Source: an uncultured Eubacteriales bacterium (GTDB taxonomy: Bacteria; Acidobacteriota; Aminicenantia; Aminicenantales; Saccharicenantaceae). From it: a DNA stretch of 64,000 nt. A model generated the notes under the pieces. It worked only from the letters and a program-made list of their open reading frames with translations, had not been told where the DNA came from and did no database searches. The position numbers and the translations under genes are program-made. This document shows, in pieces, positions 24,490 to 64,000 of the stretch; within the stretch, counting starts at the first letter, position 1, and each line of letters opens with the position of its first letter. The stretch is taken from the NCBI GenBank assembly GCA_964422165.1, contig CAYQZX010000022.1, positions 65,002 through 129,001 on the forward strand, in the 5' to 3' direction.

Positions 24490-24540
24490 GGATTCCCCTG
24501 GTTGTATTAAAGGCTAACCTGGTAAAATATATATGAATGA

Positions 24541-26319
24541 TTATTCATATGATAGACAGATCCCCACCGAGCCTATCCCGTTGTGCACTCCGACTACGGG
24601 TGAAGTGTCCAGGATGAAGCTAACCGGTTTCCCGCAGATATTTTCAATCTCCCGGGCATAAGCTTGGGCCCGGTCCGGTTCGCTTACATGGACTATAGCA
24701 AAGGAGTGAATAGGATGCTGACGGTGTTTCTCTCTTACCATTTTCAGAATCTTTTTGAAATTCTGCTTTCGGCTGAAGGACTTGCCGGCCGAAGTGGCTT
24801 TGCCTTCTTCGTTCAGGGTGATAATGGGTTTTATATTCAGAAGTTTAGCCAGCAGGCCTTTAGCCGGGCTCACCCGGCCTCCCTTGACCAGGTATTTTAA
24901 TGTTTTAACGTCAACCAGAAGTTCGGTCTTAGCTGAGAGCTCCTCGGCTTTTTTAGCCAGTTCATCCACTTCCTGATTGCCGGGCCAATCATCCAGCAGA
25001 CGCTTGACTATCAGGCCAAAAGTGCCAGACAGATGACGAGTGTCAACCACCCGGATTTTTTTATCGGTAAATGTTTCAGCCACTTTTTTTACCAGATGGT
25101 GATAACCGGAAAGCCCGCTGGAAATGGTCAGGACCAGGATGGACTCAAAATGACTGCTCAGAAAGGAAAACCAGTTTTCTAAGGTTTTGGGAGACGGCTG
25201 AGCACTCCGGGGCAGGATTTCTCCCTGACTCATCAGCTGGTAGAGTTTATCCGGAGTGATGGTCAGCTTGTCAAGAAAAACCTGATCGCCGATGTTGATC
25301 AGGAAGGGTATTACCACTACCTGGTACTGTTCAAGCCAATGAGCGGGTAAATCGCAGGAAGAATCCACTACCAGAGCTACCCGGCTATTTGGTCTTAGAC
25401 TTATTTCAGCTTGAAGCTTCATGTCTTCAACCTTGGGCTGAACGATGGTGCCTAAATCTTTCAGGGCATAGAACAATTCAGCTGGGTGGTTGGTATGGAC
25501 ATGAAAACGGGCTTTGGACTCAGAACCGCCGATAATGGCTGAATCTCCGGCCTGGACTACAATTTTCTTGATTGTTTCTAAATCCAGAGCTTCACCTTGA
25601 ATCAGGGCTTCGGTACAGTAGCGATAAGTTAGATTTTCCCGAATTTTATGGGGAGTTTCCTTTAATTCAATCTCAGGCAGTTCATCTTTAATAATGCTTT
25701 TCAGATTGCCCTGTCTGATAAAGTTGACTACACCCTCAATGAAATCAACAAAACCTCTGGCCCCGGCATCTACCACCCCGGCCTTTCTCAGTACGGCCAG
25801 CTTTTTAGGGGTTTCCTGGAGAGCAGCCCTGGCTCTTTCCAGTGAATGATGAAGCAGCTCCTGGTAGTCGGCGAAGCGGTGCCGGTTATGATAAACTTCA
25901 TCAGCCCACTCCCGGATGAGGGTTAGCATGGTTCCCTCCTGAGGATGAGCGATGGCATTGTAAGCGTAACGGACAGCGTTGCGGACAGATTCTCCAAAAC
26001 GAGAGGTGGTTACCCTGATTTCATTTCCGAGTTCCCTGCTGAGGCCGTAAATGAACTGAGCGAAGATTATTCCCGAGTTACCCCGGGCTCCCGTTAGAGC
26101 GGCTTCGGCAATGGAATGGAGAACTTCTTTAATTGAGCGGGCCGGTCGGGCCTGCTCGGCAATGGCTTTCATGGTTGAAGCCAGGTTGGTTCCAGTGTCG
26201 CCATCAGGGACTGGAAAAACATTAATCTGGTTCAGATAAGCAAAATCTTTGATAACGGCTTTACCCCCCGCCAGGAAAGCAAGATAAAATCTTTTTCCGT
26301 CCAGATATTTAATTTTCAT
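24541..26319 (-). CDS. DAK2-domain fusion protein (YloV family) with a DegV-like C-terminal domain
   Basis: N-terminal DAK2 motif (PVPDGDTGTNL...RGNSG) and C-terminal DegV-like segment (ALVVDSSCDLP.......VVIP). Confidence 0.7.
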   Translation of the reverse strand: MKIKYLDGKRFYLAFLAGGKAVIKDFAYLNQINVFPVPDGDTGTNLASTMKAIAEQARPARSIKEVLHSIAEAALTGARGNSGIIFAQFIYGLSRELGNEIRVTTSRFGESVRNAVRYAYNAIAHPQEGTMLTLIREWADEVYHNRHRFADYQELLHHSLERARAALQETPKKLAVLRKAGVVDAGARGFVDFIEGVVNFIRQGNLKSIIKDELPEIELKETPHKIRENLTYRYCTEALIQGEALDLETIKKIVVQAGDSAIIGGSESKARFHVHTNHPAELFYALKDLGTIVQPKVEDMKLQAEISLRPNSRVALVVDSSCDLPAHWLEQYQVVVIPFLINIGDQVFLDKLTITPDKLYQLMSQGEILPRSAQPSPKTLENWFSFLSSHFESILVLTISSGLSGYHHLVKKVAETFTDKKIRVVDTRHLSGTFGLIVKRLLDDWPGNQEVDELAKKAEELSAKTELLVDVKTLKYLVKGGRVSPAKGLLAKLLNIKPIITLNEEGKATSAGKSFSRKQNFKKILKMVREKHRQHPIHSFAIVHVSEPDRAQAYAREIENICGKPVSFILDTSPVVGVHNGIGSVGICLSYE

Positions 26320-39619: not shown

Positions 39620-40015
39620 TTGAAAGAAAATACCTTTGACAGCAAATTTCGCTTTGTTATAGTGGCAGCTCAGAGGGCCAAACAACTTCTTAAGGGTGAA
39701 ACCCCGAAAATTAAAACCAGAAGCCGCAATCCCATCAGGATTGCTCAAGATGAAGTTCGGTCAGGAGCCATTAAGTATGAAATTTTACCCTTCAGGAGAG
39801 AGGAAGGTTTTGAGGAAGAAGAAGTCCTCTTGACTGAAGCCATACCTTTAGAAGCCGCAGAAGCTGAAGTTGAGCCTGAGTTTGAAGGTCAAGAGCTGGA
39901 GGAGCTTGAGGAAGAACTGCTCGAAGAAGGGGAAGAGGAACTCGAAGAACTTGAAGATTTAGAACTTGAAGATCTGGAGCTCGAAGAGGAAGGCGGCCTG
40001 GATGAGGAAGACTGA
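39620..40015 (+). CDS. rpoZ: DNA-directed RNA polymerase omega subunit with a long acidic (Glu/Leu-repeat) C-terminal extension
   Basis: N-terminal SKFRFVIVAAQRAKQL...NPIRIAQDEVRSGAI matches the RpoZ core (NRFDLVLVAARRARQ....VIALREI.EG). It is followed by about 60 aa of EELEEL-type repeats. Confidence 0.7.
   Translation: MKENTFDSKFRFVIVAAQRAKQLLKGETPKIKTRSRNPIRIAQDEVRSGAIKYEILPFRREEGFEEEEVLLTEAIPLEAAEAEVEPEFEGQELEELEEELLEEGEEELEELEDLELEDLELEEEGGLDEED
39880..40000. repeat. Short tandem coding repeats (GAAGAACTC/GAAGAGCTG-type 9-12 nt units)
   Basis: Read directly from the sequence: gaagaactgctcgaagaaggggaagaggaactcgaagaacttgaagatttagaacttgaagatctggagctcgaagaggaa. Confidence 0.55.
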
Positions 40016-40530
40016 TATTCCTTCAGCCTTTTTTCTTTAATCATCTGCCCGTAATCCATCTTTATAAAATCCCTGCGGGCAAAGCCCAGTTTTCTGGCCA
40101 GCCTGACGATATCGCTTCTTTTTCCTTCCAGTTCCAGAAAGTGCCCGACTTCGGTTTCATCCAGGCAAATCTTAACTCTATCTTTTCTCAGTAGCATTCT
40201 TTTTTTCCGGTATTCGAAGACAGGTCTTAAACCGAGTTTCTTAAGGATTTTCTTGAAGTGACGTATGTTTTTGACTTCCGATTCATATTCTTCTCTGACC
40301 TTAAAGGACCTTGATTTCAGTGGTTGTCCTTTAAAAGTTATGAATGCTTTGCGACCAAAGCGTCTGAGCCTTAAAGCTTGGTGGCTTTTTTCCAGCCGGC
40401 CATCAGCAAAATCATAGAAGGCATTCCATTCGCGGTAGAAATCGCGGTCAACAGTACAGCCCAGTTCCAGAAGCTTTTTTCTGATTTCTCTGGGGTCAGA
40501 GATTCTAAGTTTGACTTCTACTTCAATCAT
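39889..40530 (-). CDS. CYTH-domain protein (class IV adenylate cyclase CyaB / thiamine-triphosphatase-like). The annotated 3' end runs antisense through the rpoZ acidic repeats, producing a poly-Ser tail
   Basis: N-terminal EVEVKLRI (ExExK motif) and a roughly 165-aa CYTH core. The last 45 aa or so are Ser-rich because they are the reverse complement of GAA/GAG repeats. Confidence 0.65.
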   Translation of the reverse strand: MIEVEVKLRISDPREIRKKLLELGCTVDRDFYREWNAFYDFADGRLEKSHQALRLRRFGRKAFITFKGQPLKSRSFKVREEYESEVKNIRHFKKILKKLGLRPVFEYRKKRMLLRKDRVKICLDETEVGHFLELEGKRSDIVRLARKLGFARRDFIKMDYGQMIKEKRLKEYQSSSSRPPSSSSSRSSSSKSSSSSSSSSPSSSSSSSSSSSS

Positions 40531-42540: not shown

Positions 42541-44301
42541 TTAATTTATAACCCGGCTTCTGAGCTGAACAATGGGAACAGCTCCGTTTGATATAAGCCT
42601 GGCGATAAACTCAGCCCGATTGAAAGCCTGTCCTTTGGTTCTCTGGGCATCCTTTTCCAGGTCCAGGATTTCCTGAAGACCTACATAAGGCAGAGCTCCC
42701 ATTCCGGGATTGAGTACCAGATAATCCCACTTTCTTTCAGCTTCAGCTTCAGTCTGAAAGCCCTGAACAGTGAGATAGCGAATAACCTGCTCTTTTGTCA
42801 TTCCGCCCTGGTGAATGTTGAGATCAATGATAAAGTCCATGGCTGTTTTGAGCATCAATTTTAACTGATTTAACCTGATTCTCAGGTCATAATCGCCATA
42901 GCCGGCTGCGATCAGATTTTCCTGAAGGTAAACTGGCCAGCCCAGGAGCAAGGCCTGGTTGGGGAAAACGCGGGAAATCAGGCTAGAGGCCTTCTTGGTA
43001 ATGGTCAGGGGAACGAAAGTTCCAGGGAAAACTTTCTGAGCGGTCAGCACTTCCAGGTAAAAGTTATTGTATTCTTCCAGAAAGTTTTTGACTTTTTCTT
43101 CAGACCAGTCTGGGGGAATGGGCATAATTTCCAGTGCGTAATTGCCATGAGTTTCGTAAGCTCCGGGGCCAATCAGGCGAGTGGGGGAAACTCCGGAAAA
43201 GTAAGCCGGCATCGGTCTAATGGTTAAATTTTCTGCTGGAACGGGGAAAGTTTTGGTTTCCTCAGCAAACTTCCTAAGCTTCTCGGCCACTGCTGCAATG
43301 GAGGAAACCAGCTGGTCTCTGGTTGGATGGAAAGCTTTGATTTTATCAAACACGTTCCTTATCACCCGGTTCCAGATGGTATCCTGATCTCCCTGCAATT
43401 GTTCGAGATCAATTTCCGGATACATCATCTTATGAAGTGGGATGCAGACCAGAAACATCTCTCGGCGGATGTTTTTAACATCGGCCGTGGCTCTGGCAAT
43501 CAGTTCTTCCTGGCTGATAGCCGAGCCAGAAAGCCTTTGAATCATTCGGCGGTGAACTTCCTGAACCCGGAAATTGCCGGTGGACCTGGGCAGCAGTTCG
43601 TTTCTGAGATATCTCTGGTAATCTTCAAGCAGAGCCACCACTTTGTTGAGTTCGGCGAGGAAAGCTTGTTTGGTAACTTCTGATGCTTCAGCCACCAGAT
43701 TCGGGGCTTCGGTCTTGTAGAAATCGATGATATAGGGCATCTGCCTGAGAGCGGTTTCAGTGTAAGCCTGAGCTGGGGTCTTTAAATTTTCTCTAGCCCT
43801 TTTGATAAGAGTTGGCATTTGCTTGGCTCTTTCTGTGGCACTTTTAACTCTGGCCTCAAGAGGAGCGAAATCACTGGTTAGCAGGCTATGAATGCTGTTG
43901 ATGATTATGTCGTTGTAAAATAGAGGGTTGTAGTCCCAGGGCAGAAGGTTTTCCAGTCTAATAATCTCGAGGTCTATGTAATCGAAGAGGATATTCAGAG
44001 CCTGTTGATTCTCGGCTGAAAGTTTTGACCGGTCAAGTTTAATGATGTCGCCGTTTATTTTCTTTATAAGATCGTCTCTTTTATCAACGTTTGATTGACT
44101 GGGGTCTTCTAGCTTGTCGTTGTATTTGTAGTAGCCGGCCAGAGTAGCTTGAGTCGGATAAAATTTCCAGTATTCATCCAGATAAGTTTCCAGAATTTTC
44201 TGGAATTTGCCGTCTTCAGCACTCTGAGCCAGAGCCTGCCCGAAAGGATGAAGCAGGATTAAAATGGCGGCACTTAAAAGCAGCAATTTTGATTTCTTCA
44301 T
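42541..44301 (-). CDS. Secreted DUF885-family protein (putative lipoprotein or peptidase-like)
   Basis: Signal peptide, then YLDEYWKFYP..AT..G...YNDKL, the characteristic DUF885 N-terminal motif; 586 aa. Confidence 0.55.
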   Translation of the reverse strand: MKKSKLLLLSAAILILLHPFGQALAQSAEDGKFQKILETYLDEYWKFYPTQATLAGYYKYNDKLEDPSQSNVDKRDDLIKKINGDIIKLDRSKLSAENQQALNILFDYIDLEIIRLENLLPWDYNPLFYNDIIINSIHSLLTSDFAPLEARVKSATERAKQMPTLIKRARENLKTPAQAYTETALRQMPYIIDFYKTEAPNLVAEASEVTKQAFLAELNKVVALLEDYQRYLRNELLPRSTGNFRVQEVHRRMIQRLSGSAISQEELIARATADVKNIRREMFLVCIPLHKMMYPEIDLEQLQGDQDTIWNRVIRNVFDKIKAFHPTRDQLVSSIAAVAEKLRKFAEETKTFPVPAENLTIRPMPAYFSGVSPTRLIGPGAYETHGNYALEIMPIPPDWSEEKVKNFLEEYNNFYLEVLTAQKVFPGTFVPLTITKKASSLISRVFPNQALLLGWPVYLQENLIAAGYGDYDLRIRLNQLKLMLKTAMDFIIDLNIHQGGMTKEQVIRYLTVQGFQTEAEAERKWDYLVLNPGMGALPYVGLQEILDLEKDAQRTKGQAFNRAEFIARLISNGAVPIVQLRSRVIN

Positions 44302-44412
44302 TCTGATAACCTCCTTGTGTCTTTTGTCTCCGGCTAATGCCTTAATTTAATTCTAACTTTTTATATTACCACAGCCTGATTATTAATATCAATTTTTATT
44401 TGATAAAATCTT

Positions 44413-45414
44413 TTACCACCTGATGAAGGCTGAACCCCAGGTAAAACCGGCTCCGAAGGCGGTGAGAGCTATGAGCATACCTTTTTGAATTCGGCCGTCT
44501 TTTACGGCTTCTGAGAGAGCAATCGGAATGGAAGCAGCCGTGGTGTTGCCGTATTTATCTATGTTTCTGATAACCTTCTCTTCCGGAATTTTCAGTCCTC
44601 GGGCCACCATCTGAGAAATGCGGTCGTTGGCCTGATGGGGAATTAAATAATCGATGTCATTTACTGTCAGGCCCAGGTGCTGAAGACCCTGCAGCACAGC
44701 CTGAGGCATTTTTTCGGAAGCGTTTTTAAAAACAGTCCGGCCATTCATTCGGGGATAGAATGCTCCCTGCTCAAAAAATTCAGGTCTGAAGGTTGGGTTA
44801 TCTTTTGAGGATGGCTTTTCCATCCAGAGCTCGCTGACGAACCGACCGTCTGAAAAAAGATGACAGGAAAGAACGCCTCGGCCATCACCTGAATCGTTTG
44901 GCTCAAGAATAACCGCTCCGGCTCCATCTCCAAAAAGAACAGCCATGTCCCGGCCTTCGTCAGAAAAATCCAGATTGGCCGATTGAAGCTCGGCAGCCAC
45001 CAGAAGTATCTTTTTATAAGTACCGGTCTTTATGTACTGGTCGGCTACGGAAAGAGCATAGATGAATCCGGAACACTGGTTTCTGATGTCAAGGGCTCCT
45101 ATTTCTTTTAACCCGAGCTTGGCCTGGACCATCACTCCTATTCCCGGGAAATAGTGGTCGGGAGAAAGAGTGGCTGCAATGATGAAATCGATTTCTGACC
45201 TGTCTATTCCGGCATCTTCTATAGCTCTAAGGGCAGCTTCCGTGGCTAGGTCTGAAGTCCCCACCCCCGGTTCAGCCCAGTGACGCTGGATAATACCTGT
45301 TCGTTCTCTTATCCACTCATCAGAGGTGTTCATCATTTTTTCCAGGTCAAAATTAGTTACCACTTTAGGTGGAACATAATGTCCAATCCCTGTTATTACT
45401 GTTTTTCTTTCCAT
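44413..45414 (-). CDS. fabH: 3-oxoacyl-ACP synthase III (KAS III)
   Basis: C-terminal GFGAGFTWGS, an active-site Cys region (NQCSGFIYAL), and His/Asn motifs. I chose the start at Met 45414 after a GGAG RBS. Confidence 0.8.
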   Translation of the reverse strand: MERKTVITGIGHYVPPKVVTNFDLEKMMNTSDEWIRERTGIIQRHWAEPGVGTSDLATEAALRAIEDAGIDRSEIDFIIAATLSPDHYFPGIGVMVQAKLGLKEIGALDIRNQCSGFIYALSVADQYIKTGTYKKILLVAAELQSANLDFSDEGRDMAVLFGDGAGAVILEPNDSGDGRGVLSCHLFSDGRFVSELWMEKPSSKDNPTFRPEFFEQGAFYPRMNGRTVFKNASEKMPQAVLQGLQHLGLTVNDIDYLIPHQANDRISQMVARGLKIPEEKVIRNIDKYGNTTAASIPIALSEAVKDGRIQKGMLIALTAFGAGFTWGSAFIRW

Positions 45415-45504
45415 TTTATGATTACTCCATTTGTTTTGTTTATTTATGGGCATTAAATTATAAATGAAATTTTAATAGAGATAAAATAAAAAATTATTAT
45501 TTCT

Positions 45505-46479
45505 CTACAGCCAGCCTTGCTTTTGGTACCAGGTGAGGGTTTCTCTCAGCGCCTTCTGAAAATCCCAGACGGTCTCAAACTCCAGTTCCCGCTTGATTTT
45601 AGAAACATCAGCCACCCAGGAGAGTTTTTCCAGATCCTGACATTTACTGAGGTTCAAAGTGCTGGGTTTTTTTGAAAATCTGGAAAGAAGTTCAGAACAT
45701 CCGGCCACTCCTCTGGCCGCCCAGAGGGGCACTCTAATTGTCGTTACCTTTCTCCCCAAAATTCTGGCCGATTCCAGCCCTATCTCTTCCCAGCTTCTGG
45801 GCACAGGGTCTGCTACATTGTAAATTTCTCCACTCTTTAGACCAGGCTGGGCGGCTTTAAGCAATGCCCTTACCAGGTCATCCACATAGCAAAGGCTCAT
45901 CAAAATCGGCCTGGTAAAAGATAGCAATAAGCCCCTCTTAATTAGCTGAAAGAACTGTAAGAAATCTAGGTCACCAGGTCCGTAGACAGCTGCAGCCCGC
46001 AGGATTATGACCTGGAGCTCATTTTTCTTTTTTAAGACTTCAGCCTCAGCCTGCAGCTTGCTGTGGCCGTAGGGCGAAGCCGGGCAGGGAGAAGAGTCTT
46101 CACTAACCGGTTCTCCTGAGGAAGAAGGTCTTCCGGCGGCCAGGCTGCTCAGATGCACAAACCTCGGTCTGAGTCCACTGCGCAGCAGAGAGAGGAGTAA
46201 GCTTGCCGTTCCCTTCTGGTTTACAGTATAATAATCAGCTGGACTCAGAGCTTTGGTCAGTCCAGCTAAGTGAAAGACCACTTCACAGTCACCTGGAAGG
46301 GACGGAAGCGACAGGAGGTCTCCTTTTAAAAGGTAGAGGTTGTTGAATGATTTGAGCCGGTTCAGTTTAGCGGGGTTTCTGACGAGGGCATAAACTTGGT
46401 TCTGAGGATTGCTGGAGAGCAAATGTTCGACCAGGCGGGTACCGATGAATCCGGTGGCACCGGTAACCAGGGCAATCAT
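45505..46479 (-). CDS. NAD(P)-dependent epimerase/dehydratase-family SDR protein
   Basis: N-terminal Rossmann VTGATGFIG; a YxxxK-type catalytic region (YGHSK); 324 aa. Confidence 0.7.
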   Translation of the reverse strand: MIALVTGATGFIGTRLVEHLLSSNPQNQVYALVRNPAKLNRLKSFNNLYLLKGDLLSLPSLPGDCEVVFHLAGLTKALSPADYYTVNQKGTASLLLSLLRSGLRPRFVHLSSLAAGRPSSSGEPVSEDSSPCPASPYGHSKLQAEAEVLKKKNELQVIILRAAAVYGPGDLDFLQFFQLIKRGLLLSFTRPILMSLCYVDDLVRALLKAAQPGLKSGEIYNVADPVPRSWEEIGLESARILGRKVTTIRVPLWAARGVAGCSELLSRFSKKPSTLNLSKCQDLEKLSWVADVSKIKRELEFETVWDFQKALRETLTWYQKQGWL

Positions 46480-46598
46480 GCTCTGATTTTAGACCAAGCC
46501 TTCGGGCCGGTCAATCAATCTTGAAAAAAGTTTAAGAAAAGAGTAAAAAGTTATAACCATTAATTAGAAAGAGTTTGAAAATATTTCAGGAGGACAGA

Positions 46599-47783
46599 AT
46601 GGATATTTTTGAAAAGTGCTATGCTTATACCAAAGATGAGGAGGCAAAAGCTCTCGGACTTTATCCCTACTTCACTCCAATTTCTGAAGCTAAAGGCAAC
46701 AGAGTCAAGGTGCACGGGAAAGATATGATTCTGGTTGGGTCCAATAATTATCTTGGATTGATTGACCATCCCAAAGTTAAAAAGGCTGCTCAGGAAGCCA
46801 TTGACCGCTACGGCGTGGCTACCTGCGGTTCCAGGTTTCTGACCGGAACCATCGACCTGCACGAGGTCCTGGAGGAGAGATTGGCCAGGTTCATGAGGAA
46901 AGAAGCAGCCGTCACTTTCTCCACCGGATATCAAACTAACCTGGGCATAATTACCTCACTGGCTGGCAAGGACGATTGTATCATTACTGACCGCATGGAC
47001 CATGCCAGTATTATAGATGCCTGCCGGATGTCCAGGGCTGAGGTTAAGAAATACAGGCATAACGATATGGAAGACCTGGAAAAAGTCCTGTCCGAGATTC
47101 CGGCTGAAAAAGGGAAGCTAATTGTGGTTGATGGAGTCTTCAGTATGGAAGGTGACATTGTGGATTTGCCCGGAGTGGTTAAGCTGGCTAAAAAATACCG
47201 GGCCCGCATTCTGGTTGATGATGCTCATGGTCTTGGAGTCCTTGGCCAGAACGGCCGTGGTACAGCCGAACATTTTGGACTGGAAGATGAAGTTGACCTA
47301 ATCATGGGTACCTTTAGCAAATCTTTTGTTTCTATCGGTGGCTTTGTTGCTGGAGAGAAAAAAGTTGTTAACTACATCAAACACAATGCCCGACCGTTGA
47401 TTTTCAGCGCTGCAGCGACTCCGGCCTCAGTGGCCACAGTTCTGGCTGCTCTCGAGGTCATCGAAACCGAACCGGAAAGAAGAGAAAGACTCTGGCAGAT
47501 TACCAGGTTTATGCGGGAAAGCTTCCAGAAGATGGGTTTCGATACTGGACCAAGCCAGACACCCATAATTCCTATCATTATCGGTCATTTTGAAAAGTGT
47601 TTTGCCATGTGGAAGGCTCTTAAAGAAGCCGGAATTTTCACAACGCCGGTAATTCCGCCGGCCGTTCCAGCCGGTCAGGAACTGATCAGAACCAGTTATT
47701 CAGCCAACCATACCGATGAAGAACTCCATCAGATTCTGGCAGCCTTTGAAATGTGCGGCAAAGCTCTGGGCATAATTCATTGA
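46599..47783 (+). CDS. Alpha-oxoamine synthase family PLP enzyme, serine-palmitoyltransferase-like (alternatively BioF/Kbl)
   Basis: PLP-lysine motif GTFSKSFVSIGGFVAG, plus DDAHG and SNNYLGL motifs of class II aminotransferases of the AONS/Spt/Kbl group. Start at 46599 after a CAGGAGGA RBS. Confidence 0.7.
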   Translation: MDIFEKCYAYTKDEEAKALGLYPYFTPISEAKGNRVKVHGKDMILVGSNNYLGLIDHPKVKKAAQEAIDRYGVATCGSRFLTGTIDLHEVLEERLARFMRKEAAVTFSTGYQTNLGIITSLAGKDDCIITDRMDHASIIDACRMSRAEVKKYRHNDMEDLEKVLSEIPAEKGKLIVVDGVFSMEGDIVDLPGVVKLAKKYRARILVDDAHGLGVLGQNGRGTAEHFGLEDEVDLIMGTFSKSFVSIGGFVAGEKKVVNYIKHNARPLIFSAAATPASVATVLAALEVIETEPERRERLWQITRFMRESFQKMGFDTGPSQTPIIPIIIGHFEKCFAMWKALKEAGIFTTPVIPPAVPAGQELIRTSYSANHTDEELHQILAAFEMCGKALGIIH

Positions 47784-47802
47784 GTCAATAATATTTAAGC
47801 GG

Positions 47803-49644
47803 GTGACCTTTATGCAAATTTATAAAGCCCGATGGCAGCTTAAATCTGCAGCTCTGGTTCTTATCCTGTGGTTCATCTTTGTTTCTTCTCTTGAAGCTTC
47901 CAGCCGCATCCTACCGCTTTCCCAGATTAAGCCCGGGATGAAGGGAATTGGAAGAAGCGTTTTTTCTGGCAGCCAGGTCGAAGAGTTTGAGGTGGAAATT
48001 CTGGGAGTGGTTGAGAACCAGCAGCCCCGGAGGAGCTGGATTCTGGCTAGGCTTAAAGGGCGGGGACTGGAAAGTACCGGGGTGATTTCCGGGATGAGCG
48101 GCAGCCCGGTTTACATTGACGGGCAGCTAATAGGGTCTGTGGCTTTCAGCTATGCTTTCACTAAAGAAGCTGTGGCTGGGCTAACCCCGATTGAAGAGAT
48201 GCTGGAAATCCCGGCCAGAGTTCAGGGAAAGAGAATTCAGTTTAGCACAGCTAAGGATTTACTCGCTGAAAGTTTGATTCAGGAGCATTTAGGGCAGACC
48301 TTTATTACCCTCAGCTCCCGTCAGGAGGAAGCCTGGAATCATGACCAGGGTATAATTCCCGTCAGAGTACCGCTAATTTTTTCCGGATTTTCAGAAAGAG
48401 CTTTTCAGGCTTTCAAACCTTTTTTCAGCGACCGGAATTTTCAACCGGTCTTAAGTTCCACAGAGGCCACTCCTCAGAGCTTAAAGCTGAGCCCTCAACC
48501 TGTTGTATTTAAAGAAGGTGAGGCCGTTGGGGTTCAGCTTATGACTGGAGACTTGGATCTGACTGCTGTGGGCACGGTAACCTACGTTGATGGGAACAGA
48601 ATCCTGGCTTTTGGCCATCCTTTTTATAATCTTGGTCCAGTAGATTACGGCCTGACCAGGGCTGAGATTCTGGGAGTGGTCCCGAGTCTTCAGAGCTCTT
48701 TTAAGCTGGCTTCGACAGGCCAGCTAGTCGGAAGGGTGGTTCAGGACAGAACCTCTGGGGTGCTGGGAGAAATTGGAGTTTTGCCCCGTTATGTCCCTGT
48801 CAATGTTGAAATTCAACGAAGCCCACTGAATCTGAAACAGTTCAAGTTGCGGCTGGTTAATGACCAGATTTTAACTCCAGCCCTCCTGAATCTCGGGCTT
48901 TATACCCTGATGAGCAGTGAAGAAAGGTCTTACGGAAACCTCTCTGTGGATTTTGAAGCCGATTTGTTTTTGGAACAGGGACTGAGTGTCCGCCTTGAAG
49001 ACCTGTTCACCGGAAATCTTGATAACCCCATCACCAGCCTTTCCAGCCTGGTAGCAGCTGTAGTTTATCTCTTAAAAAATAACGAATTCAAAGAAGTTGC
49101 CATCAACCAGGTTGAAATAAAAATCAAGGTTGTGGAGGAAATCCGGACGGCCACCCTGGAAAAAGTTTTGCTTGATAAATATGAAGTTTCTCCTGGAGAA
49201 ATAGTCAAGGTAAAAACCTATTTTCGCACCTTCAGCGGAGAGGTCAAAACTGAAGAGGTGGAGTTTATGACTCCGGCTCTTCCTTCAGGTTCAGAGTTTG
49301 AACTGGTGGTAGCTGAGGCCAGCTACATCCAGCAGTTAGAAAGAGAGCTTTATCGAGTCCAGGATTTTACCCCCCGCAACCTCAGTCAATTAATAAGGAT
49401 TCTCGGCAATCTGAGAAAAAACAACCGCATTTATTTTAGAATAATCGCTCCCCGGTCCGGGCTGTTTTTGAAAGGGGAAGAGCTGCCAAATTTACCACCA
49501 AGCTTCAAGAATATGTTCATCTCGCCGAGAGCCTCGACCGTTAATCTAATTGAGCTGAACCGTTCAACCCTGAGTGAGTACCAGCTGCCGATTCCTTATG
49601 TATTTAAAGGGGCTCTGACAGTTCCGATAAAAATAAAAAAGTAA
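47803..49644 (+). CDS. Secreted protein carrying SpoIVB/S55-peptidase-like motifs (GMSGSPV Ser motif and AFGHP His motif) in an unusual order
   Basis: Signal/anchor helix. VISGMSGSPVYIDGQLIGSV sits near residue 100 and AVGTVTYVDGNRILAFGHPF near residue 270. The roughly 330-aa C-terminal region has no recognisable motif. Confidence 0.4.
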   Translation: MTFMQIYKARWQLKSAALVLILWFIFVSSLEASSRILPLSQIKPGMKGIGRSVFSGSQVEEFEVEILGVVENQQPRRSWILARLKGRGLESTGVISGMSGSPVYIDGQLIGSVAFSYAFTKEAVAGLTPIEEMLEIPARVQGKRIQFSTAKDLLAESLIQEHLGQTFITLSSRQEEAWNHDQGIIPVRVPLIFSGFSERAFQAFKPFFSDRNFQPVLSSTEATPQSLKLSPQPVVFKEGEAVGVQLMTGDLDLTAVGTVTYVDGNRILAFGHPFYNLGPVDYGLTRAEILGVVPSLQSSFKLASTGQLVGRVVQDRTSGVLGEIGVLPRYVPVNVEIQRSPLNLKQFKLRLVNDQILTPALLNLGLYTLMSSEERSYGNLSVDFEADLFLEQGLSVRLEDLFTGNLDNPITSLSSLVAAVVYLLKNNEFKEVAINQVEIKIKVVEEIRTATLEKVLLDKYEVSPGEIVKVKTYFRTFSGEVKTEEVEFMTPALPSGSEFELVVAEASYIQQLERELYRVQDFTPRNLSQLIRILGNLRKNNRIYFRIIAPRSGLFLKGEELPNLPPSFKNMFISPRASTVNLIELNRSTLSEYQLPIPYVFKGALTVPIKIKK

Positions 49645-49699
49645 GGTTGAAGGAGAAAGCTTTCTAACGGGGCTTTGCTCCAGATAAGGCAGGTTAGAG

Positions 49700-51892
49700 A
49701 TGAAAGAAATCTTAAAACTGAGTTTAAAATTGTTTTTGGTTTTTATGCTGGTGACCAGTCTTCAGGCTGTCTCTCCCAGGCAGTGGGAGTTGAGGAGTCG
49801 GGAGGATTTTCTGAAAGGTAAATTCTCAGGAACCTCTCTTTCTTCAGATGGAGTTCTTTCCATAGGCTTCCGGATTGAAAAGATCGAACTTCCGGTCGAG
49901 GAATTTTATCTCTCAATAGCTAATGGTCCAGATGGCAGCCTGTATGTTGGTACTGGACATGGGGGCCGGGTTTATCGAATAGGTCGGGACAGGAAAGCTG
50001 AACTTTATTTTCAGGCTGCGGAAATGGATGTTACCTGCCTGGCGGTTGACCCTAAGGGTATTCTTTATGTCGGGACCTCGCCCAATGGCAAAATCTACAA
50101 GGTAACTTCGAAGAATAAGGGAGAGGTATTTTTTGACCCCCAGGAAAAATACCTCTGGGATCTACTGCTCACCGATAAAGGCAATCTGCTGGCTGCGGTG
50201 GGTGAAAGTGCCGGTGTCTATGAGATTACGCCATCAGGTTCCGGTAAAATGTTGTTTAAGGCCCGGGATAATCATATCCTGCGTCTTGTCTTAAGCCGGA
50301 ATGGTGAACTACTGGCCGGCAGCGGAGGACGGGGTCAGCTCTATAAAGTTTCTTTAAGTGGTCGGGTGAGTGTGGTTTTCGATTCCGGTTACGAAGAAAT
50401 CAGAAACATAGTCCAGACCCGGGAAGGCTATATCTATGTCAGCGCCTCAGGCCAGCCTTCAAGAATGGTAGCCACAGTTTCTACTGCTTCTGAAACCGAG
50501 CCGGTCAGAATCGACACTGAAGTCAGTCTGGTGGTTTCCACATCTGGAGCAGCCAGGGTGGCGTCCGAAACCGCTCCGGCTCGAGCCGAGAAGAAGCCTG
50601 TCGGGACTGTTTCCGGGGCCGTCTTTGAGATATCTCCTGAAGGCTTAAGCCGGAAAATCTGGAGTTCTGCTGAGGAAATGGTTTACAGCCTGATACCGGA
50701 CAGTGACCGATTGCAATTGCTTCTCGGCACCGGTAATCAGGGCCGAATCTATGGTCTGGACACTCGCGGCCAGTTTGAACTTCTGGCTCAGGAAAGCTCG
50801 GAGCAAATTTTTGAGTTGTATCGTCTGGACAATCAAATTCTGGTTCTCGGCAACAATCCCTGTTTTCTGGGAATTCTCCAGCCCGGTCAGAATTTTTCCG
50901 GCGAGTATTTGAGCCCGGTGCTGGATGCCAGAATTCTTTCTAACTGGGGCCGGATAAGCTGGGAAGCCGAATTTATTCCAGGCTCCACAGTTCAGGTGCA
51001 ATCCCGGAGCGGCAACACCGCTGAGCCAGACGAAACCTGGAGTGACTGGTCGCCACCTTATGCTCGTCCCGATGAAAAGATTTTAAGTCCAGCCGGCCGT
51101 TACCTTCAGCTTAAGGTCAATTTAAAAGGTCAGGGAGGGAAAGCCCTGCCAAGGGTTCAGCGAGTTCTGGTGTTTTACCAGCAGAACAACGTAGCCCCTG
51201 AAATTACCCGGCTGGAAATCCTTCCACCCAACCAGGTTTTTATCAAGCCACCAGAGCAGGATGAGGCCATCCTGGGCCTGGATCAGGCTTCACGTGAATC
51301 AGCCAGAAAAAAAGATGAATCAGACTTTTACCTGACCCCCAAAAAAGGGAAGCGTCAGGGATTCAGGACATTAAAATGGGAAGCTTCGGATGAGAATGAA
51401 GATGACCTCACCGCCAGCATTTACCTCAGAAAAGAGGGAGAAACGGACTGGAGGTTGATGCAGGAAAACCTAACCGATAAGGTTTTTTCTTTTGACACCC
51501 GCAATTTTCCGGATGGAACCTACTGGCTTAAAGTGGAGGTAACCGACCTTCCTTCTAATCCCCCAGGGACTGAAAAAAAAGCGGAAAAAACCAGTCCTCC
51601 TGTGGTAATAGACAATTCTTTACCGGTGATTAAAAATTTACAGGTTGCAAGAACAGGAGAGAGGTTGGAAGTTTCCTTCACAGCTGAAGATGCCTATTCC
51701 TACATAGCTGAGGTCAAATACTTAGTTAAATCGGATGACTGGAAGCTGGTTTTTCCGGTGGATGGTATTTGTGATTCTCGGAGTGAAAATTTTAAGTTCA
51801 ACCTGAAACTCCCCCAGGCTTCAGATAACCTTCTGATAATTCGCGTCAAAGACAGCTTTGGTAATGTTGGGGTTTATCATCACCGTTTTTAA
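49700..51892 (+). CDS. Secreted beta-propeller repeat protein with a C-terminal Ig/Fn3-like domain
   Basis: Signal peptide ending LQA. Repeated G..G.(I/V)Y(K/R)(V/I) blade motifs (GHGGRVYRI, SPNGKIYKV, SAGVYEI, GRGQLYKV). The C-terminal region resembles Y_Y_Y/Ig-like sensor domains (FPDGTYWLKVEVTD). Confidence 0.45.
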   Translation: MKEILKLSLKLFLVFMLVTSLQAVSPRQWELRSREDFLKGKFSGTSLSSDGVLSIGFRIEKIELPVEEFYLSIANGPDGSLYVGTGHGGRVYRIGRDRKAELYFQAAEMDVTCLAVDPKGILYVGTSPNGKIYKVTSKNKGEVFFDPQEKYLWDLLLTDKGNLLAAVGESAGVYEITPSGSGKMLFKARDNHILRLVLSRNGELLAGSGGRGQLYKVSLSGRVSVVFDSGYEEIRNIVQTREGYIYVSASGQPSRMVATVSTASETEPVRIDTEVSLVVSTSGAARVASETAPARAEKKPVGTVSGAVFEISPEGLSRKIWSSAEEMVYSLIPDSDRLQLLLGTGNQGRIYGLDTRGQFELLAQESSEQIFELYRLDNQILVLGNNPCFLGILQPGQNFSGEYLSPVLDARILSNWGRISWEAEFIPGSTVQVQSRSGNTAEPDETWSDWSPPYARPDEKILSPAGRYLQLKVNLKGQGGKALPRVQRVLVFYQQNNVAPEITRLEILPPNQVFIKPPEQDEAILGLDQASRESARKKDESDFYLTPKKGKRQGFRTLKWEASDENEDDLTASIYLRKEGETDWRLMQENLTDKVFSFDTRNFPDGTYWLKVEVTDLPSNPPGTEKKAEKTSPPVVIDNSLPVIKNLQVARTGERLEVSFTAEDAYSYIAEVKYLVKSDDWKLVFPVDGICDSRSENFKFNLKLPQASDNLLIIRVKDSFGNVGVYHHRF

Positions 51893-52148
51893 GGTAGTTA
51901 ATTTGAAAAAATGGGGTCAGAGTCAGTGTGTGGCTTTGATTCAGGTTCCAGTAAATAGCCCTGACTGGTAATTTGATTTCCAGCTTTAATTCGTTTTTGT
52001 AAACCGGAGAGGGGATTATCGTCGGAGATAAATTTATTAATAACGGAGGGGCTTTCTCTGTTAATAACAAAATAAACCTTAAAGAGACACTGGCATTGAA
52101 GCAAAAAAAGATTTTGCCGGCTGAATTTTGATCGGTTTTGACCAGTTT

Positions 52149-52715
52149 TTATCTGGTTTTTACCCTTTCCAGATACTTGTCTTCTCTGGTATCGACTCTG
52201 ATGACATCACCTTCTTTGATGAACTGAGGAACCTGGATGACCAGTCCGGTTTCCAGTTTGGCCGGCTTGGAACTGGCGCTCTGAGTAGCTCCTTTAAGCA
52301 TCGGTTCTGTTTCTACCACGGTTAAATCCACGGTGTTGGGCAGCCTGATGCCGACCGGCTGTCCTTCATACATTTCTATTGTCAGAACTAGGTCGGGAAT
52401 TAAGTAGTTTAGGCCGTCACCGATAGCTTCCAGGTCCAGCTTAATCTGTTCGTAGGTCTGGAGGTTCATGAAGTAGAATTCGTCACCGCTGCGATAAAGA
52501 TAGACCATCTCCACTTCTTCTAAATAAGCCTGTTCCACTCGGTCTTCAGAGCGGAATCGGTATTCTAACTGAGAATTGTCCTTGATATTGCGGAGTTTGG
52601 TCTGAACCATGGCCTTCCAGCGGCCCGGGGTGATTAGCTGGCAATCCAGAACTCGGTAAAGTTGTCCTTCCAGCTTGATGATCATTCCTCTGCGAATTTT
52701 GGTGGCATCAATCAT
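52149..52715 (-). CDS. efp: Translation elongation factor P with Arg at the position of the modified Lys/Arg (loop TPGRW)
   Basis: Full-length alignment to EF-P (KOW-like domain I, OB domains II and III; C-terminal VPQFIKEGDVIRVDTR..YLERV). The loop reads ITPGRWKAM where E. coli has VKPGKGQAF. Confidence 0.85.
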   Translation of the reverse strand: MIDATKIRRGMIIKLEGQLYRVLDCQLITPGRWKAMVQTKLRNIKDNSQLEYRFRSEDRVEQAYLEEVEMVYLYRSGDEFYFMNLQTYEQIKLDLEAIGDGLNYLIPDLVLTIEMYEGQPVGIRLPNTVDLTVVETEPMLKGATQSASSKPAKLETGLVIQVPQFIKEGDVIRVDTREDKYLERVKTR

Positions 52716-58874: not shown

Positions 58875-60125
58875 CTATTCATATCTCAGACAGACAATGG
58901 GGTCAAGGTGAGCAGCCTTCTGGGCTGGAAAAATTCCAAAGAATAGACCGACGGCCATAGAAACCGAAAGCCCCATCAGCACTGACCACCAGGAGACTGC
59001 GGCTGGTAGCGGAGTGGCAGCCTTGATGATTAAAGCAATGCCGAAACCCACCAGAATTCCCAGAATTCCCCCAAGACTGGTGAGGACCATGGCTTCTACT
59101 AAAAACTGCTTGATTATGTCTCGGGCTCTGGCTCCGATGGCCTTGCGGATGCCGATTTCTCTGGTTCTCTCTTTGACAGCCACCAGCATTATGTTCATCA
59201 CTCCTATTCCGCCCACCAGTAAGCCGATGGACGAAATTACAATCATCACAATGAAGGCCGCTCCGGTAATCTGGTTGTAAAGATTCAACAGGCTTTCCTG
59301 GGTGAAAATGGCAAAATCGTTGGGCTTATTGGGCGGGACCTTTCTTCTCACCCGGAGCAGATTGATAACCTGTTCCATGGTCTCCTCAATCGTGGCCGAA
59401 TCCCTGGGCACCACGGTCAGCTGCAGCGAGCTCTTATCATAGGGAAAATATTTCATCAAGCTGGTGTAGGGGATGACTACCAGGTTATCCCGACTCTGAC
59501 CGAACATCTGCCCCCGCTTACCCATGACACCAATTACTGTAAAGTTTTCCGGCCCAATCCTGATTTCTTTGCCCACCGGGCTCGAATGAGGAAAGAGGGC
59601 TTCAGCCACCTCGGTTCCGATCAGGCAAACCCTGGCGCTGTGTCTGATTTCGGCGGCAGTGAAACTGCGGCCTTCCTTTGGCAGATAAACGGCGTAAACG
59701 TAGTTAAAATTCTCGTCGGCCCCAAAAACTATGGCGTTATCACTCTTCAGGTTCTGATATTTTACTTCCGGAAGCTTTAGGAAATCAGGACTGATCTGAA
59801 TGGTCAGGGCACCAACCAGCGGACAACCATTTCTGATGGCTTCAGCATCTTCAATGGTCAGGTCTTTTCTCTGCCGTTCTTCATCACTCCGGCTTCCTAT
59901 CTGGATGGGTTCAAATTTCTGAATCATAATAAGGTTGCTGCCTATTCGCTCTATTTCTCCGGCGATGCTCCTGTTTAAGCCCTGAATGACCGAAACCATG
60001 GCGATTACTGTCATGACACCGATGATAATTCCCAGGGTAGTCAGGAAAGAGCGCAATTTATGGCTTCTGATAGACTCCAGGGCCATGGAGATGGTTTCCA
60101 GCAGCAGTCTGGTTCTGAATTTCAT
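58875..60125 (-). CDS. MacB/FtsX-family ABC transporter permease (MacB_PCD periplasmic domain plus 4 TM)
   Basis: N-terminal ALESIRSHKLRSFLTTLGIIIGV helix, a roughly 220-aa periplasmic domain, and a C-terminal three-TM FtsX domain. Confidence 0.75.
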   Translation of the reverse strand: MKFRTRLLLETISMALESIRSHKLRSFLTTLGIIIGVMTVIAMVSVIQGLNRSIAGEIERIGSNLIMIQKFEPIQIGSRSDEERQRKDLTIEDAEAIRNGCPLVGALTIQISPDFLKLPEVKYQNLKSDNAIVFGADENFNYVYAVYLPKEGRSFTAAEIRHSARVCLIGTEVAEALFPHSSPVGKEIRIGPENFTVIGVMGKRGQMFGQSRDNLVVIPYTSLMKYFPYDKSSLQLTVVPRDSATIEETMEQVINLLRVRRKVPPNKPNDFAIFTQESLLNLYNQITGAAFIVMIVISSIGLLVGGIGVMNIMLVAVKERTREIGIRKAIGARARDIIKQFLVEAMVLTSLGGILGILVGFGIALIIKAATPLPAAVSWWSVLMGLSVSMAVGLFFGIFPAQKAAHLDPIVCLRYE

Positions 60126-61363
60126 TGTTCAGACCTCAAGGCTTCTACCGGGTTTAGCCGGGCAGCCTGGTTGGCCGGGTAAATACCAAAAAATAATCCC
60201 ACCATAGTGGACATCAGAATGGCTACCAGGATGGATACCGGGTCTACGCTTGAGGGCAGGGAAGTGGTAGCCGTTACCACCCGGGCAATCGTATAGCCCA
60301 GAATGATCCCGATTATTCCACCCAGACCTGAAAGCAAAGCCGATTCTATCAAAAATTGAATCAGGATGTCCCGGCGGCGGGCTCCTACTGCCATCCTGAT
60401 ACCGATTTCTTTGGTCCTTTCGGTTACCGAAACCAGCATAATGTTCATGATGACAATTCCCCCAACCAGCAAGGCGATGGAAGAGATAGCTATCATGGCA
60501 AAATAAATTCCGGAAGTGGCTGATTTGTAGAACTGAATAAAGGTTTCTGATGTCTGGAAGGCGAAGTCATCCGGCTGGTTGTAAGTCCTTTTTCTGGCTG
60601 AGCGGAGAATGGTCCGGACCTCTTCCATAGCCCTGTTCATTGCCTCCTGGGAAGAAGTGTGAATATTAATGGTCACCGTGCGCCGGCTGCCGTAAATCTT
60701 CATGAAAGTTGAGATCGGAATCCAGGCGTAGTTGTCCTGACTAAAGCCGAGGATTTTGCCCTTCCTCTGACCCAGTCCTATTATCTGAAAATTCTGGCTG
60801 CCAATCTTTACCCAGCGGCCTATCGGGTCTAAGCCCGGGAAAAGGTTATCAGCTACATCGGCTCCGATTATGCAGACATAGCGGGAGCGGTCTTCATCAT
60901 CCTGCAGGAAGAAGCGGCCGCTCTGTAGCTCCAGGACTGAACCTATCATATGGTCAACGGAAGTTACTCCTCTTATGGAAACATTCTTTATGGAGCGGTT
61001 ACCGTATTTGAGGTCTTGGGTGGTTTCAACTGAGGCGCCAACCAGCTCGCAGGAGCGGCACAGGGTCCTGATTATTCTCATCTCTTCCAGGGTCAGGTCC
61101 TTTCGCTTCAACTGTTCAGTGTATTCTTTGATGGTTGAGATAAAAGGCGAAAATTTGGAAACGGCAAAGTCGTTGGCTCCGTAAAATGACATCTTGGTGT
61201 AAACGTAATTATTAAGGCCCTGAATTACCGAAACCACGGCAATTATAGTTAAAACTCCTATGATAACTCCGAGCAAGGTCAGAAAAGTTCGAAGCTTGTT
61301 TGCCCGGAGGGAAGATAGAGCCATGTTCAGGGACTCGCTGAAGTACAGGCTGCTTTTCTTCAT
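60122..61363 (-). CDS. MacB/FtsX-family ABC transporter permease, a paralogue coupled to the downstream permease (ATGA overlap)
   Basis: ALSSLRANKLRTFLTLLGVIIGV and the same architecture as the neighbouring permease. Confidence 0.75.
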   Translation of the reverse strand: MKKSSLYFSESLNMALSSLRANKLRTFLTLLGVIIGVLTIIAVVSVIQGLNNYVYTKMSFYGANDFAVSKFSPFISTIKEYTEQLKRKDLTLEEMRIIRTLCRSCELVGASVETTQDLKYGNRSIKNVSIRGVTSVDHMIGSVLELQSGRFFLQDDEDRSRYVCIIGADVADNLFPGLDPIGRWVKIGSQNFQIIGLGQRKGKILGFSQDNYAWIPISTFMKIYGSRRTVTINIHTSSQEAMNRAMEEVRTILRSARKRTYNQPDDFAFQTSETFIQFYKSATSGIYFAMIAISSIALLVGGIVIMNIMLVSVTERTKEIGIRMAVGARRRDILIQFLIESALLSGLGGIIGIILGYTIARVVTATTSLPSSVDPVSILVAILMSTMVGLFFGIYPANQAARLNPVEALRSEQ

Positions 61364-63198: not shown

Positions 63199-64000
63199 TT
63201 ACTCGGATTTGACGGTTTCTTTTTCTTGCTCCGAGGAGCTGTCCTCAGCTGAGAATTCTTCCCAGACCCGGTTCAGTTCCAGAAGTCTGGCATCGACCAG
63301 AGCGTTGATTGTTCCAGGTTCGTAAGTGCCGTCTGCCAGCCTTTCTCCAGCTCTGACCCCGGTCAGTATCTCCATTCCTTCGTCTACTGTTTTTATCGGA
63401 TAGATATGGAATTTGCCTTCAGCCACCGCCTGGACCACTTCTTCTTTCAGCATCAGGTTCTTGACGTTTTGGTATGGGATAATGACTCCCTGGGTCCCGG
63501 TGAGTCCCCGGGCTTTGCAGACTTCAAAAAAGCCTTCTATTTTTTCATTAACTCCGCCAATGGGCTGAATTTCACCTTTCTGATTGATGGAGCCGGTCAC
63601 GGCCAGATCCTGCCTCAGGGGCAGCCCGGAGAGGCTGGAAAGTATGGCGTAGGCTTCAGTGGAAGAAGCACTATCCCCATCCACCCCAGAGTAAGACTGT
63701 TCAAAGGCAATGCTGGCGGAAAGGGCGAAAGGTTTATTCTGGGCATATTTCCCACGGAGATAGCCAGACAGAATCAGAACTCCCTTATTATGGGTTCGCC
63801 CGCTCAAACCAGCTTCTCTTTCTATATTGATAACCCCAGCTCTTCCGGTAGAAGTGCGGGCCGTTATCCTGGTAGGCTTACCGAAAGTTAGCTCTCCGGT
63901 GTCATAAACAGCAAGGCCGTTCACCTGACCGACCACCGCTCCTTCGGTATCTATAAGTATGGTCCCTTCGTCAATCATCTCCTGGATTTTTCTTTCTATT
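63199..64000 (-). CDS. Lon-like (S16) protease proteolytic domain; the gene continues beyond the window end
   Basis: GVDGDSASSTEAYAILSSL (Ser nucleophile in a GDSAS context) and a downstream Lys region. The frame is open to the window edge upstream of Met 63978. Confidence 0.65.
   Translation of the reverse strand, partial: IERKIQEMIDEGTILIDTEGAVVGQVNGLAVYDTGELTFGKPTRITARTSTGRAGVINIEREAGLSGRTHNKGVLILSGYLRGKYAQNKPFALSASIAFEQSYSGVDGDSASSTEAYAILSSLSGLPLRQDLAVTGSINQKGEIQPIGGVNEKIEGFFEVCKARGLTGTQGVIIPYQNVKNLMLKEEVVQAVAEGKFHIYPIKTVDEGMEILTGVRAGERLADGTYEPGTINALVDARLLELNRVWEEFSAEDSSSEQEKETVKSE

Follow-up and report, generated by a model that had tools for sequence, protein, structure and literature searches.

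Bacterial sphingolipids were once thought to be limited to a few groups, and the spread of genes resembling spt, which encodes serine palmitoyltransferase (Spt or SPT), is known mostly from metagenomes. The gene order epi-acpR-spt...aca has been published for Sphingomonas paucimobilis, with epi and aca being the counterparts of Caulobacter CC_1164 and CC_1154 (PMC9386255). In Bacteroidota, the proposed reductase of 3-ketodihydrosphingosine (3-KDS) is a classical short-chain dehydrogenase/reductase (SDR), BT_0972 (PMC11087976, PMC11334938), and Spt-like proteins have been found in metagenome-assembled genomes of 38 phyla, often apart from the bacterial ceramide synthase (bCerS) and the ceramide reductase (CerR; Ding et al. 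2024, PMC11334938). Here, we analyzed a 64,000-nucleotide stretch of DNA (the window; positions 65,002 to 129,001 of the forward strand of contig CAYQZX010000022.1, assembly GCA_964422165.1) from an uncultured bacterium of the Saccharicenantaceae (Acidobacteriota, Aminicenantia). A divergent gene pair at 45505-47783, encoding an SDR and an alpha-oxoamine synthase (AONS), very probably represents the Spt-CerR core of a bacterial ceramide pathway, with a gene for a bCerS-type GNAT protein 18 kb downstream on the same contig. Judged from sequence, the genome has the gene set for making a ceramide backbone, and the substrates, product, expression and activity described below are predictions. The three genes are as follows:

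46599-47783, plus strand: AONS, Spt-like, 394 aa (from NCBIfam and PDB scores, a neighbor-joining tree and an active-site alignment)
45505-46479, minus strand: SDR, CerR-family, extended type, 324 aa (from the open reading frame (ORF) list, a hidden Markov model (HMM) and BLASTP)
~65784-66905 in window-equivalent coordinates, outside the window: bCerS-type GNAT, 373 aa

Comparison of the AONS with NCBIfam models showed that its top family was the serine palmitoyltransferase of the CFB group, i.e., Bacteroidota (NF047600, 534 bits), which led the next family, a BioF/Kbl-related model (434 bits), by 100 bits and the BioF (TIGR00858, 413.5 bits) and Kbl (NF005394, 409 bits) models by ~120 bits. 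Two further Spt equivalogs gave 399 bits (NF047599, cut-off 500) and 360.5 bits (NF047603, cut-off 670), each of the Spt equivalog models having been built for a single phylum. Among solved structures in the PDB, the top match was the SPT of Sphingobacterium multivorum (427.7 bits, gapless over 376 residues), ahead by ~105 bits of the Sphingomonas SPTs (~312-322 bits) and followed by Kbl (278-292 bits), CapB (267 bits), ALAS (164-216 bits) and CqsA (133 bits). Identities followed a similar pattern, with 50.8% to the Spt of S. multivorum, 49.5% to that of Parabacteroides distasonis, 39% to that of Sphingomonas, and 39-40% to Kbl; for BioF, the values were 43% (Alicyclobacillus) and 30% (E. coli). 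In a neighbor-joining tree (200 bootstraps), the AONS fell into a clade with the S. multivorum and P. distasonis Spts at 86% support; this clade was widened by the Sphingomonas Spt at 54%, and Kbl and BioF remained outside. AONS proteins from Thioclava and Streptomyces plasmids were dropped as references as they are parts of polyketide synthase-type clusters, and a Priestia plasmid AONS (52.5% identity) had no SDR or GNAT neighbor.

The active site pointed in the same direction. The sequence GTFSKS, named as a motif characteristic of SPT (PMC10196870), occupies AONS residues 236-241, with K241 (codon 47319-47321) as the lysine that would bind pyridoxal 5'-phosphate (PLP), whereas the aligned motifs are GTLGKA in E. 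coli Kbl and VTFGKG in E. coli BioF. We also checked 17 active-site positions taken from the S. multivorum SPT structures, using S. multivorum numbering (PMC10196870), and found the AONS to be identical at 14 of them (N52, Y54, G80, S81, F83, H138, S185, D210, A212, H213, T241, S243, K244, and F272). All of the PLP- and L-serine-binding residues of S. multivorum, i.e., the set from N52 to K244 except F83, are kept, and the three differences are S53N, A79C, and M271I. At positions 80 and 81, Kbl carries S-V, unlike the G80-S81 of the AONS and SPT. The preliminary description of this DNA had already set the lysine motif apart from those of Kbl and BioF and had read the AONS as Spt-like, and both points held on the models, the structures, the tree and the alignment. 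The AONS is therefore assigned to the serine palmitoyltransferase type, with its catalysis predicted from that assignment.

The SDR carries the motifs of its superfamily, namely a putative NAD(P)-binding TGATGFIG beginning at residue 6 and a catalytic S-Y-K in SSLAA and YGHSK, and motifs of the same type are common to its homologs in Sphingomonas, Rubrobacter and the operons described below. As CerR references, we used the Sphingomonas and Klebsiella orthologs picked by published gene order (PMC9386255), rather than the Caulobacter protein itself. The Sphingomonas parapaucimobilis plasmid encodes, in order, an NAD(P)H-binding protein, an acyl carrier protein (ACP), Spt, four further genes and an N-acetyltransferase, which matches the order published for S. 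paucimobilis, and the gene arrangement on the Klebsiella plasmid, aca/aasR-epi-acpR-spt, is the one published for E. coli BL21. BLASTP of the window SDR against the two epi proteins gave 28-29% identity and 82-102 bits over ~320 aa, end to end; the mutual identity of the Sphingomonas and Klebsiella proteins is itself only 35%. An HMM trained on 44 SDRs from SDR-Spt-GNAT operons scored the window SDR at 304.5 bits, the Rubrobacter homolog at 241 bits, and the Klebsiella and Sphingomonas epi proteins at 180.4 and 172.5 bits, respectively. Other full-length proteins of the loci and the six-frame ORFs of the window reached at most 16 bits, and the sole extra match was a truncated family copy at a contig edge. 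Models of sugar epimerases and related enzymes scored much lower, with 95.5 bits for HpnA (cut-off 367.65), 67 bits for GalE and 62 bits for dTDP-glucose dehydratase. The best PDB match was 63 bits over 225 aa, i.e., two-thirds of the protein. We take CC_1164 and CC_1154 to be CerR and bCerS, respectively, by way of the locus tags CCNA_01222 and CCNA_01212. By these comparisons the SDR belongs to the CerR ('epi', CC_1164) family, and its reductase activity and location are at most predictions from that membership.

Gene linkage across phyla also tied the two proteins together. A scan for AONS homologs, with one genome per species and gaps taken from tblastn boundaries, gave 80 loci, 19 from Aminicenantes and 61 from other lineages; together they cover Aminicenantes, Nitrospirota/Thermodesulfovibrionia, Thermodesulfobacteriota and other 'delta' groups, Zixibacteria, WOR-3, Stahlbacteria, and Chloroflexota. 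In 65 species genomes of the 80, from at least seven phyla, the direct neighbor of the AONS is a full-length SDR homolog, the homologs outside the Saccharicenans group being 32-40% identical to the window SDR. In the non-Aminicenantes loci, the SDR is co-directional with and immediately upstream of the AONS in 46 of 61 and divergent in three, whereas in Aminicenantes it is divergent in 16 of 19. Among the 61 loci outside Aminicenantes, 54 encode a GNAT of ~368 aa after the AONS, at a distance of a few to ~140 bases; no GNAT was found within 10 kb of the AONS in the Aminicenantes loci. Since the pairing of SDR and Spt outlives these changes of orientation across phyla, it indicates a shared function rather than chance, and the preliminary description's pairing of the AONS with a CerR-like reductase was thus borne out by family and by position. 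A practical rule follows, in which the SDR-Spt-GNAT trio is read as a conserved module and ACP, AasR and FabH as lineage-specific neighbors.

Within the window, neither tblastn nor the HMM, run on every six-frame ORF of 100 aa or more, found the third member of this module. A JGI hot-spring metagenome (3300022548) contains a 298-kb contig, Ga0212092_1000005, that is 99.99% identical to the window, and on this contig a 373-aa GNAT is encoded 18.0 kb past the end of the AONS gene and ~1.8 kb beyond the right end of the window. It sits after a Lon protease gene, of which the window ORF 63199-63978 is the C-terminal end. This GNAT scored 463.9 bits on the HMM of operon GNATs, to which it is 42-48% identical, and shares 31% and 37% identity with the aca proteins of Sphingomonas and Klebsiella, respectively. 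The same HMM gave 312 bits for Sphingomonas, 339 for Klebsiella, and 411 for Rubrobacter, and an operon GNAT aligned with the Sphingomonas aca protein at 34% identity (E 1e-75). Since identities and HMM scores both connect it to the aca proteins, the operon GNAT is classed here as a predicted bCerS. Homologs of the GNAT with at least 61% identity occur throughout Aminicenantes, and matching lengths of the longest contigs suggest that several of them lie together with AONS and SDR homologs. As the GNAT gene stands on the contig of the window, the genome holds all three core genes of the ceramide pathway. A bCerS-type gene, which the preliminary description had proposed to look for in the genome, was thus found outside the window; a dedicated ACP gene, proposed in the same place, was not seen near the SDR-AONS pair.

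Several variants were observed around the module. In a Chloroflexota locus (L082 5514-6362), the SDR encoded upstream of the AONS is a classical one of 282 aa instead of the extended CerR type, and loci from Stahlbacteria and WOR-3 (L044, L047, L048, L062, L066, and L068) have AONS and GNAT without an adjacent SDR. In operons of the Thermodesulfobacteriota type (L063, L071, L083, L088, and L090), the gene after the bCerS-type one encodes a PAP2_3 membrane protein, and a Rubrobacter radiotolerans plasmid (L094 9431-11500) encodes, in order, AONS, bCerS-like, CerR-like and LTA-synthase/sulfatase-family proteins. The PAP2_3 and LTA-synthase-family neighbors look like head-group transferases for phosphosphingolipids. 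Beyond the window, a GNAT-ribH-nusB-tRNA synthetase stretch is followed by genes for an FtsX permease, an ABC ATPase and a BamA-like protein (L118 16956-20663), a set for outer-membrane biogenesis in the vicinity of the ceramide synthase gene; the window itself contains two MacB/FtsX-type permease genes, at 58875-61363.

In the proposed pathway, the Spt-like PLP enzyme would join L-serine (possibly also alanine or glycine) to a long-chain acyl thioester to give 3-KDS. The acyl donor would likely be an acyl-CoA, as for the related Sphingobacterium enzyme, since neither AcpR nor AasR is encoded nearby and the nearest characterized enzyme uses palmitoyl-CoA. The GNAT would N-acylate the long-chain base, and the SDR would reduce the 3-keto group with NAD(P)H, yielding dihydroceramide. 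Whether acylation or reduction comes first is debated even in Caulobacter (PMC11087976), and the order given here is one possibility.

This reading rests on family membership, conserved active-site residues and gene linkage across phyla, and several observations weigh against it. With 534 bits, the AONS does not reach the 640 bits set as cut-off for the CFB Spt equivalog, such that the NCBI rule would withhold the Spt name, and the activity of the Aminicenantes/Nitrospirota-type AONS clade as a whole is predicted from sequence. The tree is a neighbor-joining tree with few outgroups, computed without ALAS, CqsA and CapB/SulA; of the wider phylogeny proposed in the preliminary description, it therefore covers the separation of the AONS from Kbl and BioF and its grouping with characterized Spts. 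The identity of the SDR to the proteobacterial CerR orthologs is low, and the three genes do not form one operon here. Finally, one subclade of Aminicenantes (L009, L103, L104, and L106) keeps an intact SDR without an AONS at the site, where a gap of ~100 bp separates the Peptidase_S55 gene from the SDR gene (10001-10975 in L009). A metagenome scan with one of these AONS-less SDRs (P0205) returned only four close relatives. In this subclade, either the AONS has been relocated or the SDR is able to fill a different role.

A first alternative keeps the chemistry and changes the amino acid or the product, i.e., in place of sphinganine or ceramide derived from serine, the pair would make a non-canonical long-chain base, which could be of the 1-deoxy kind (with alanine or glycine as substrate) or of the sulfonolipid kind (with cysteate). 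Bacterial SPT also takes alanine and glycine at low efficiency (PMC10196870), 1-deoxyceramides and other unusual sphingolipids have been attributed to anaerobes with Spt-like genes (PMC11334938), and the AONS does depart from S. multivorum at the three neighborhood positions given above. However, the residues binding the hydroxyl and carboxylate of serine (N52, G80, S81, S243, and H138) are all kept, structures of cysteate-C-fatty acyltransferase scored 267 and 252 bits compared to 428 for SPT, and none of the window's Pfam labels was seen to indicate a cysteate synthase. We therefore consider a different amino acid substrate unlikely and retain L-serine as the predicted one.

A second alternative concerns the gene next to the SDR. 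The preliminary description had included this gene, for the ketoacyl-ACP synthase (KAS) III FabH, in a three-gene locus; on this reading, FabH could act as a dedicated condensing enzyme that supplies a primer, e.g., for a special acyl chain of the long-chain base. The remaining features of the region are as follows:

44413-45453, minus strand: FabH (KAS III), from the ORF list; public annotations place the start at 45414, giving 333 aa
46480-46598: divergent intergenic region between the SDR and AONS genes, 119 bp, with consensus matches only
46514 to 46486, minus strand: promoter-like site for the SDR gene, a consensus match only
47803/47812-49644: Peptidase_S55-like gene, co-directional with and downstream of the AONS gene
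49700-51892: Reg_prop-like gene, co-directional with and downstream of the AONS gene

The fabH gene lies on the strand of the SDR gene, downstream of it by 51 bp (90 bp if measured to the called start), the two remain neighbors in most genomes of the Saccharicenans type as well as in more remote Aminicenantes, and a FabF-like KAS occurs near some Nitrospirota operons. Outside Aminicenantes, however, FabH was found within 10 kb of the AONS in none of the 61 loci. Even within the lineage, two Saccharicenans-like genomes (L015 and L018) lack it at this position, and it is separated from the SDR by an opposite-strand ORF in three loci (L007, L009, and L023). FabH passes the curated cut-offs of the canonical FabH models (NF006829, 392 bits with a cut-off of 249; TIGR00747, 368.3 bits with a cut-off of 292.1) and is the most conserved protein of the block, at 83-93% identity compared to 79-86% for the AONS and 61-69% for the SDR. 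Moreover, it stays with the same genes where the AONS is absent, and is kept next to the SDR in L009, L103 and L104, the order in this subclade being EF-P, GHMP kinase, S55 peptidase, propeller protein, SDR, FabH, DUF885, TatD, polyprenyl synthase and RpoZ. Since the whole block is intact in a subclade without the AONS, we read it as lineage synteny, and FabH is most likely a housekeeping KAS III kept beside the SDR in this way. A dedicated role for FabH in the pathway thus appears improbable. Of the overall picture in the preliminary description, the Spt-like AONS, the CerR-family SDR and a bCerS-type gene in the genome stood, while FabH as a member of the locus did not.

The block showed one further variation. 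Several Aminicenantes (L007 8409-8912, L009 10980-11477, L021, and L023) encode, between the SDR and FabH, a small secreted protein of ~165 aa that matched no Pfam family, and in L050 (991-1470) such a protein stands directly upstream of the AONS, at the usual place of the SDR. Its gene is absent from the window.

A related idea is that Aminicenantes are sphingolipid producers with dispersed genes in which the CerR-family SDR has a second role independent of Spt. It is prompted by the one subclade that keeps an intact SDR, always beside FabH, after the loss of Spt from the site. If true, the SDR could reduce another 3-keto lipid intermediate, and the FabH-SDR neighborhood would mark an undescribed lipid route; we regard this combination as rather doubtful.

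The remaining alternative, a threonine-degradation pair of Kbl and a GalE-like L-threonine 3-dehydrogenase, or else a stray BioF, draws on the facts that SDR-type threonine dehydrogenases share the epimerase/dehydratase superfamily with the SDR and are typically paired with kbl and that the AONS reaches more than 400 bits on both models, but it was rejected as scarcely credible because the AONS stays under the cut-offs (409.3 against 460 bits for Kbl NF005394, 335 against 493 for Kbl TIGR01822, and 413.5 against 426.45 for BioF TIGR00858), the SDR scores only 24-28 bits against solved threonine dehydrogenases (7cgv and 3a1n), the AONS lacks the S80-V81 and GTLGKA of Kbl, no bio genes were seen among the Pfam labels of the window, and the partner GNAT and the cross-phylum operon fit a ceramide pathway.

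The layout of the locus agreed with the preliminary description, with the three ORFs present as it gave them, SDR and AONS transcribed divergently and FabH on the strand of the SDR. Its statement that bioA, bioD and bioB are lacking nearby also held over the entire window, where none of these genes, nor tdh, was among the Pfam labels of called genes. The AONS start was placed at ATG 46599 (394 aa), rather than TTG 46575 (402 aa), since an AGGAGG ribosome-binding site lies 7 nt upstream of this ATG and public assemblies record the 394-aa product; the 402-aa product had no exact match. No Rfam family was found in 43500-52500, and terminator-like sites were not commoner than in shuffled sequence. 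The products of the two co-directional genes after the AONS, which had been described as secreted proteins, do have hydrophobic, signal-like N-termini as judged by eye, but the genes are read as lineage synteny rather than members of the locus. The KAS (FabF-like), PAP2_3, PHP-like and DnaJ/TPR neighbors of the Nitrospirota operons have no homolog in the window. The nearest named relatives of the FabH, SDR and AONS proteins are from Candidatus Saccharicenans and other Aminicenantes.

Elsewhere in the window, the RpoZ gene (39620-40015, plus strand) encodes a long acidic, Glu/Leu-rich tail and overlaps by 127 bp with a convergent gene for a CYTH-domain protein (39889-40530, minus strand) that ends in a poly-serine run, read from the opposite strand of the GA-rich repeat of RpoZ; in L007, the two proteins are shorter (106 and 179 aa) and their genes do not overlap. 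A 592-aa protein with Dak2, FakA-like and DegV parts, maybe fatty-acid kinase A and B in one chain, is encoded within 23701-26319, and its gene adjoins one for a DUF1295/steroid-reductase-like membrane protein, with no apparent tie to the Spt-CerR pair. The window also encodes a 1398-aa protein with two BcrAD_BadFG ATPase domains and DUF2229 (1293-5489), and, at 10957-16581, contains three amidohydrolase genes in tandem together with one for an M20 peptidase.

In the literature, we found no paper linking Aminicenantes to serine palmitoyltransferase or sphingolipids, and the supplement of PMC11334938 makes no mention of Aminicenantes, Acidobacteriota or Nitrospirota. The locus is thus a new host lineage for the known Spt/bCerS/CerR pathway, which itself is unchanged, and it adds the uncultured, mostly anaerobic, thermophilic Aminicenantes (Candidatus Saccharicenans) with the full set of Spt, bCerS and CerR genes. 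If the lipids are made, they could be biomarkers in hot springs and subsurface sediments and would bear on how outer membranes are constructed at high temperature.

Compared to the systems of Caulobacter crescentus (Spt/bCerS/CerR, i.e., CC_1162/CC_1154/CC_1164) and of Sphingomonas and E. coli B (spt, aca, and epi), the genome of the window holds the same three families, and the reductase gene stands directly beside spt in the window as it does in Caulobacter, Sphingomonas, and Klebsiella/E. coli B. The GNAT (31-37% identity) and SDR (28-29%) match their proteobacterial orthologs over the full length. However, the window lacks AcpR or AasR next to spt, its Spt is on the Bacteroidota-like branch (~50% identity) rather than the proteobacterial one (38-39%), and the bCerS-type gene lies 18 kb away among housekeeping genes. 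A periplasmic location is reported for Caulobacter CerR (PMC11087976), whereas in the window SDR the Rossmann motif already begins at residue 6. Like the SPT of S. multivorum (PDB 3A2B and 8GUH), the window AONS is a protein of ~395 aa, predicted to be soluble, with GTFSKS and the substrate-binding residues. In Bacteroidota, though, spt is not clustered with bCerS or CerR (PMC11087976, PMC11334938), while here it is paired with an extended SDR of the CerR family. The predicted combination is thus a Bacteroidota-like Spt, a proteobacterial-type reductase and an unlinked ceramide synthase. Outside Aminicenantes, the nearest relatives of the AONS (57-65% identity) are in the SDR-Spt-GNAT operons of Nitrospirota (Thermodesulfovibrionia), Thermodesulfobacteriota, Zixibacteria and Rubrobacter, whose SDRs and GNATs are of the same families as those of the window genome, at 32-40% and 42-48% identity, respectively. 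In these operons, the three genes are co-directional and separated by between a few and a few tens of bases, whereas Aminicenantes have a divergent SDR and an unlinked GNAT. Ding et al. 2024 (PMC11334938) put forward the idea of an 'Spt-like clade B', to which these uncharacterized operons correspond.

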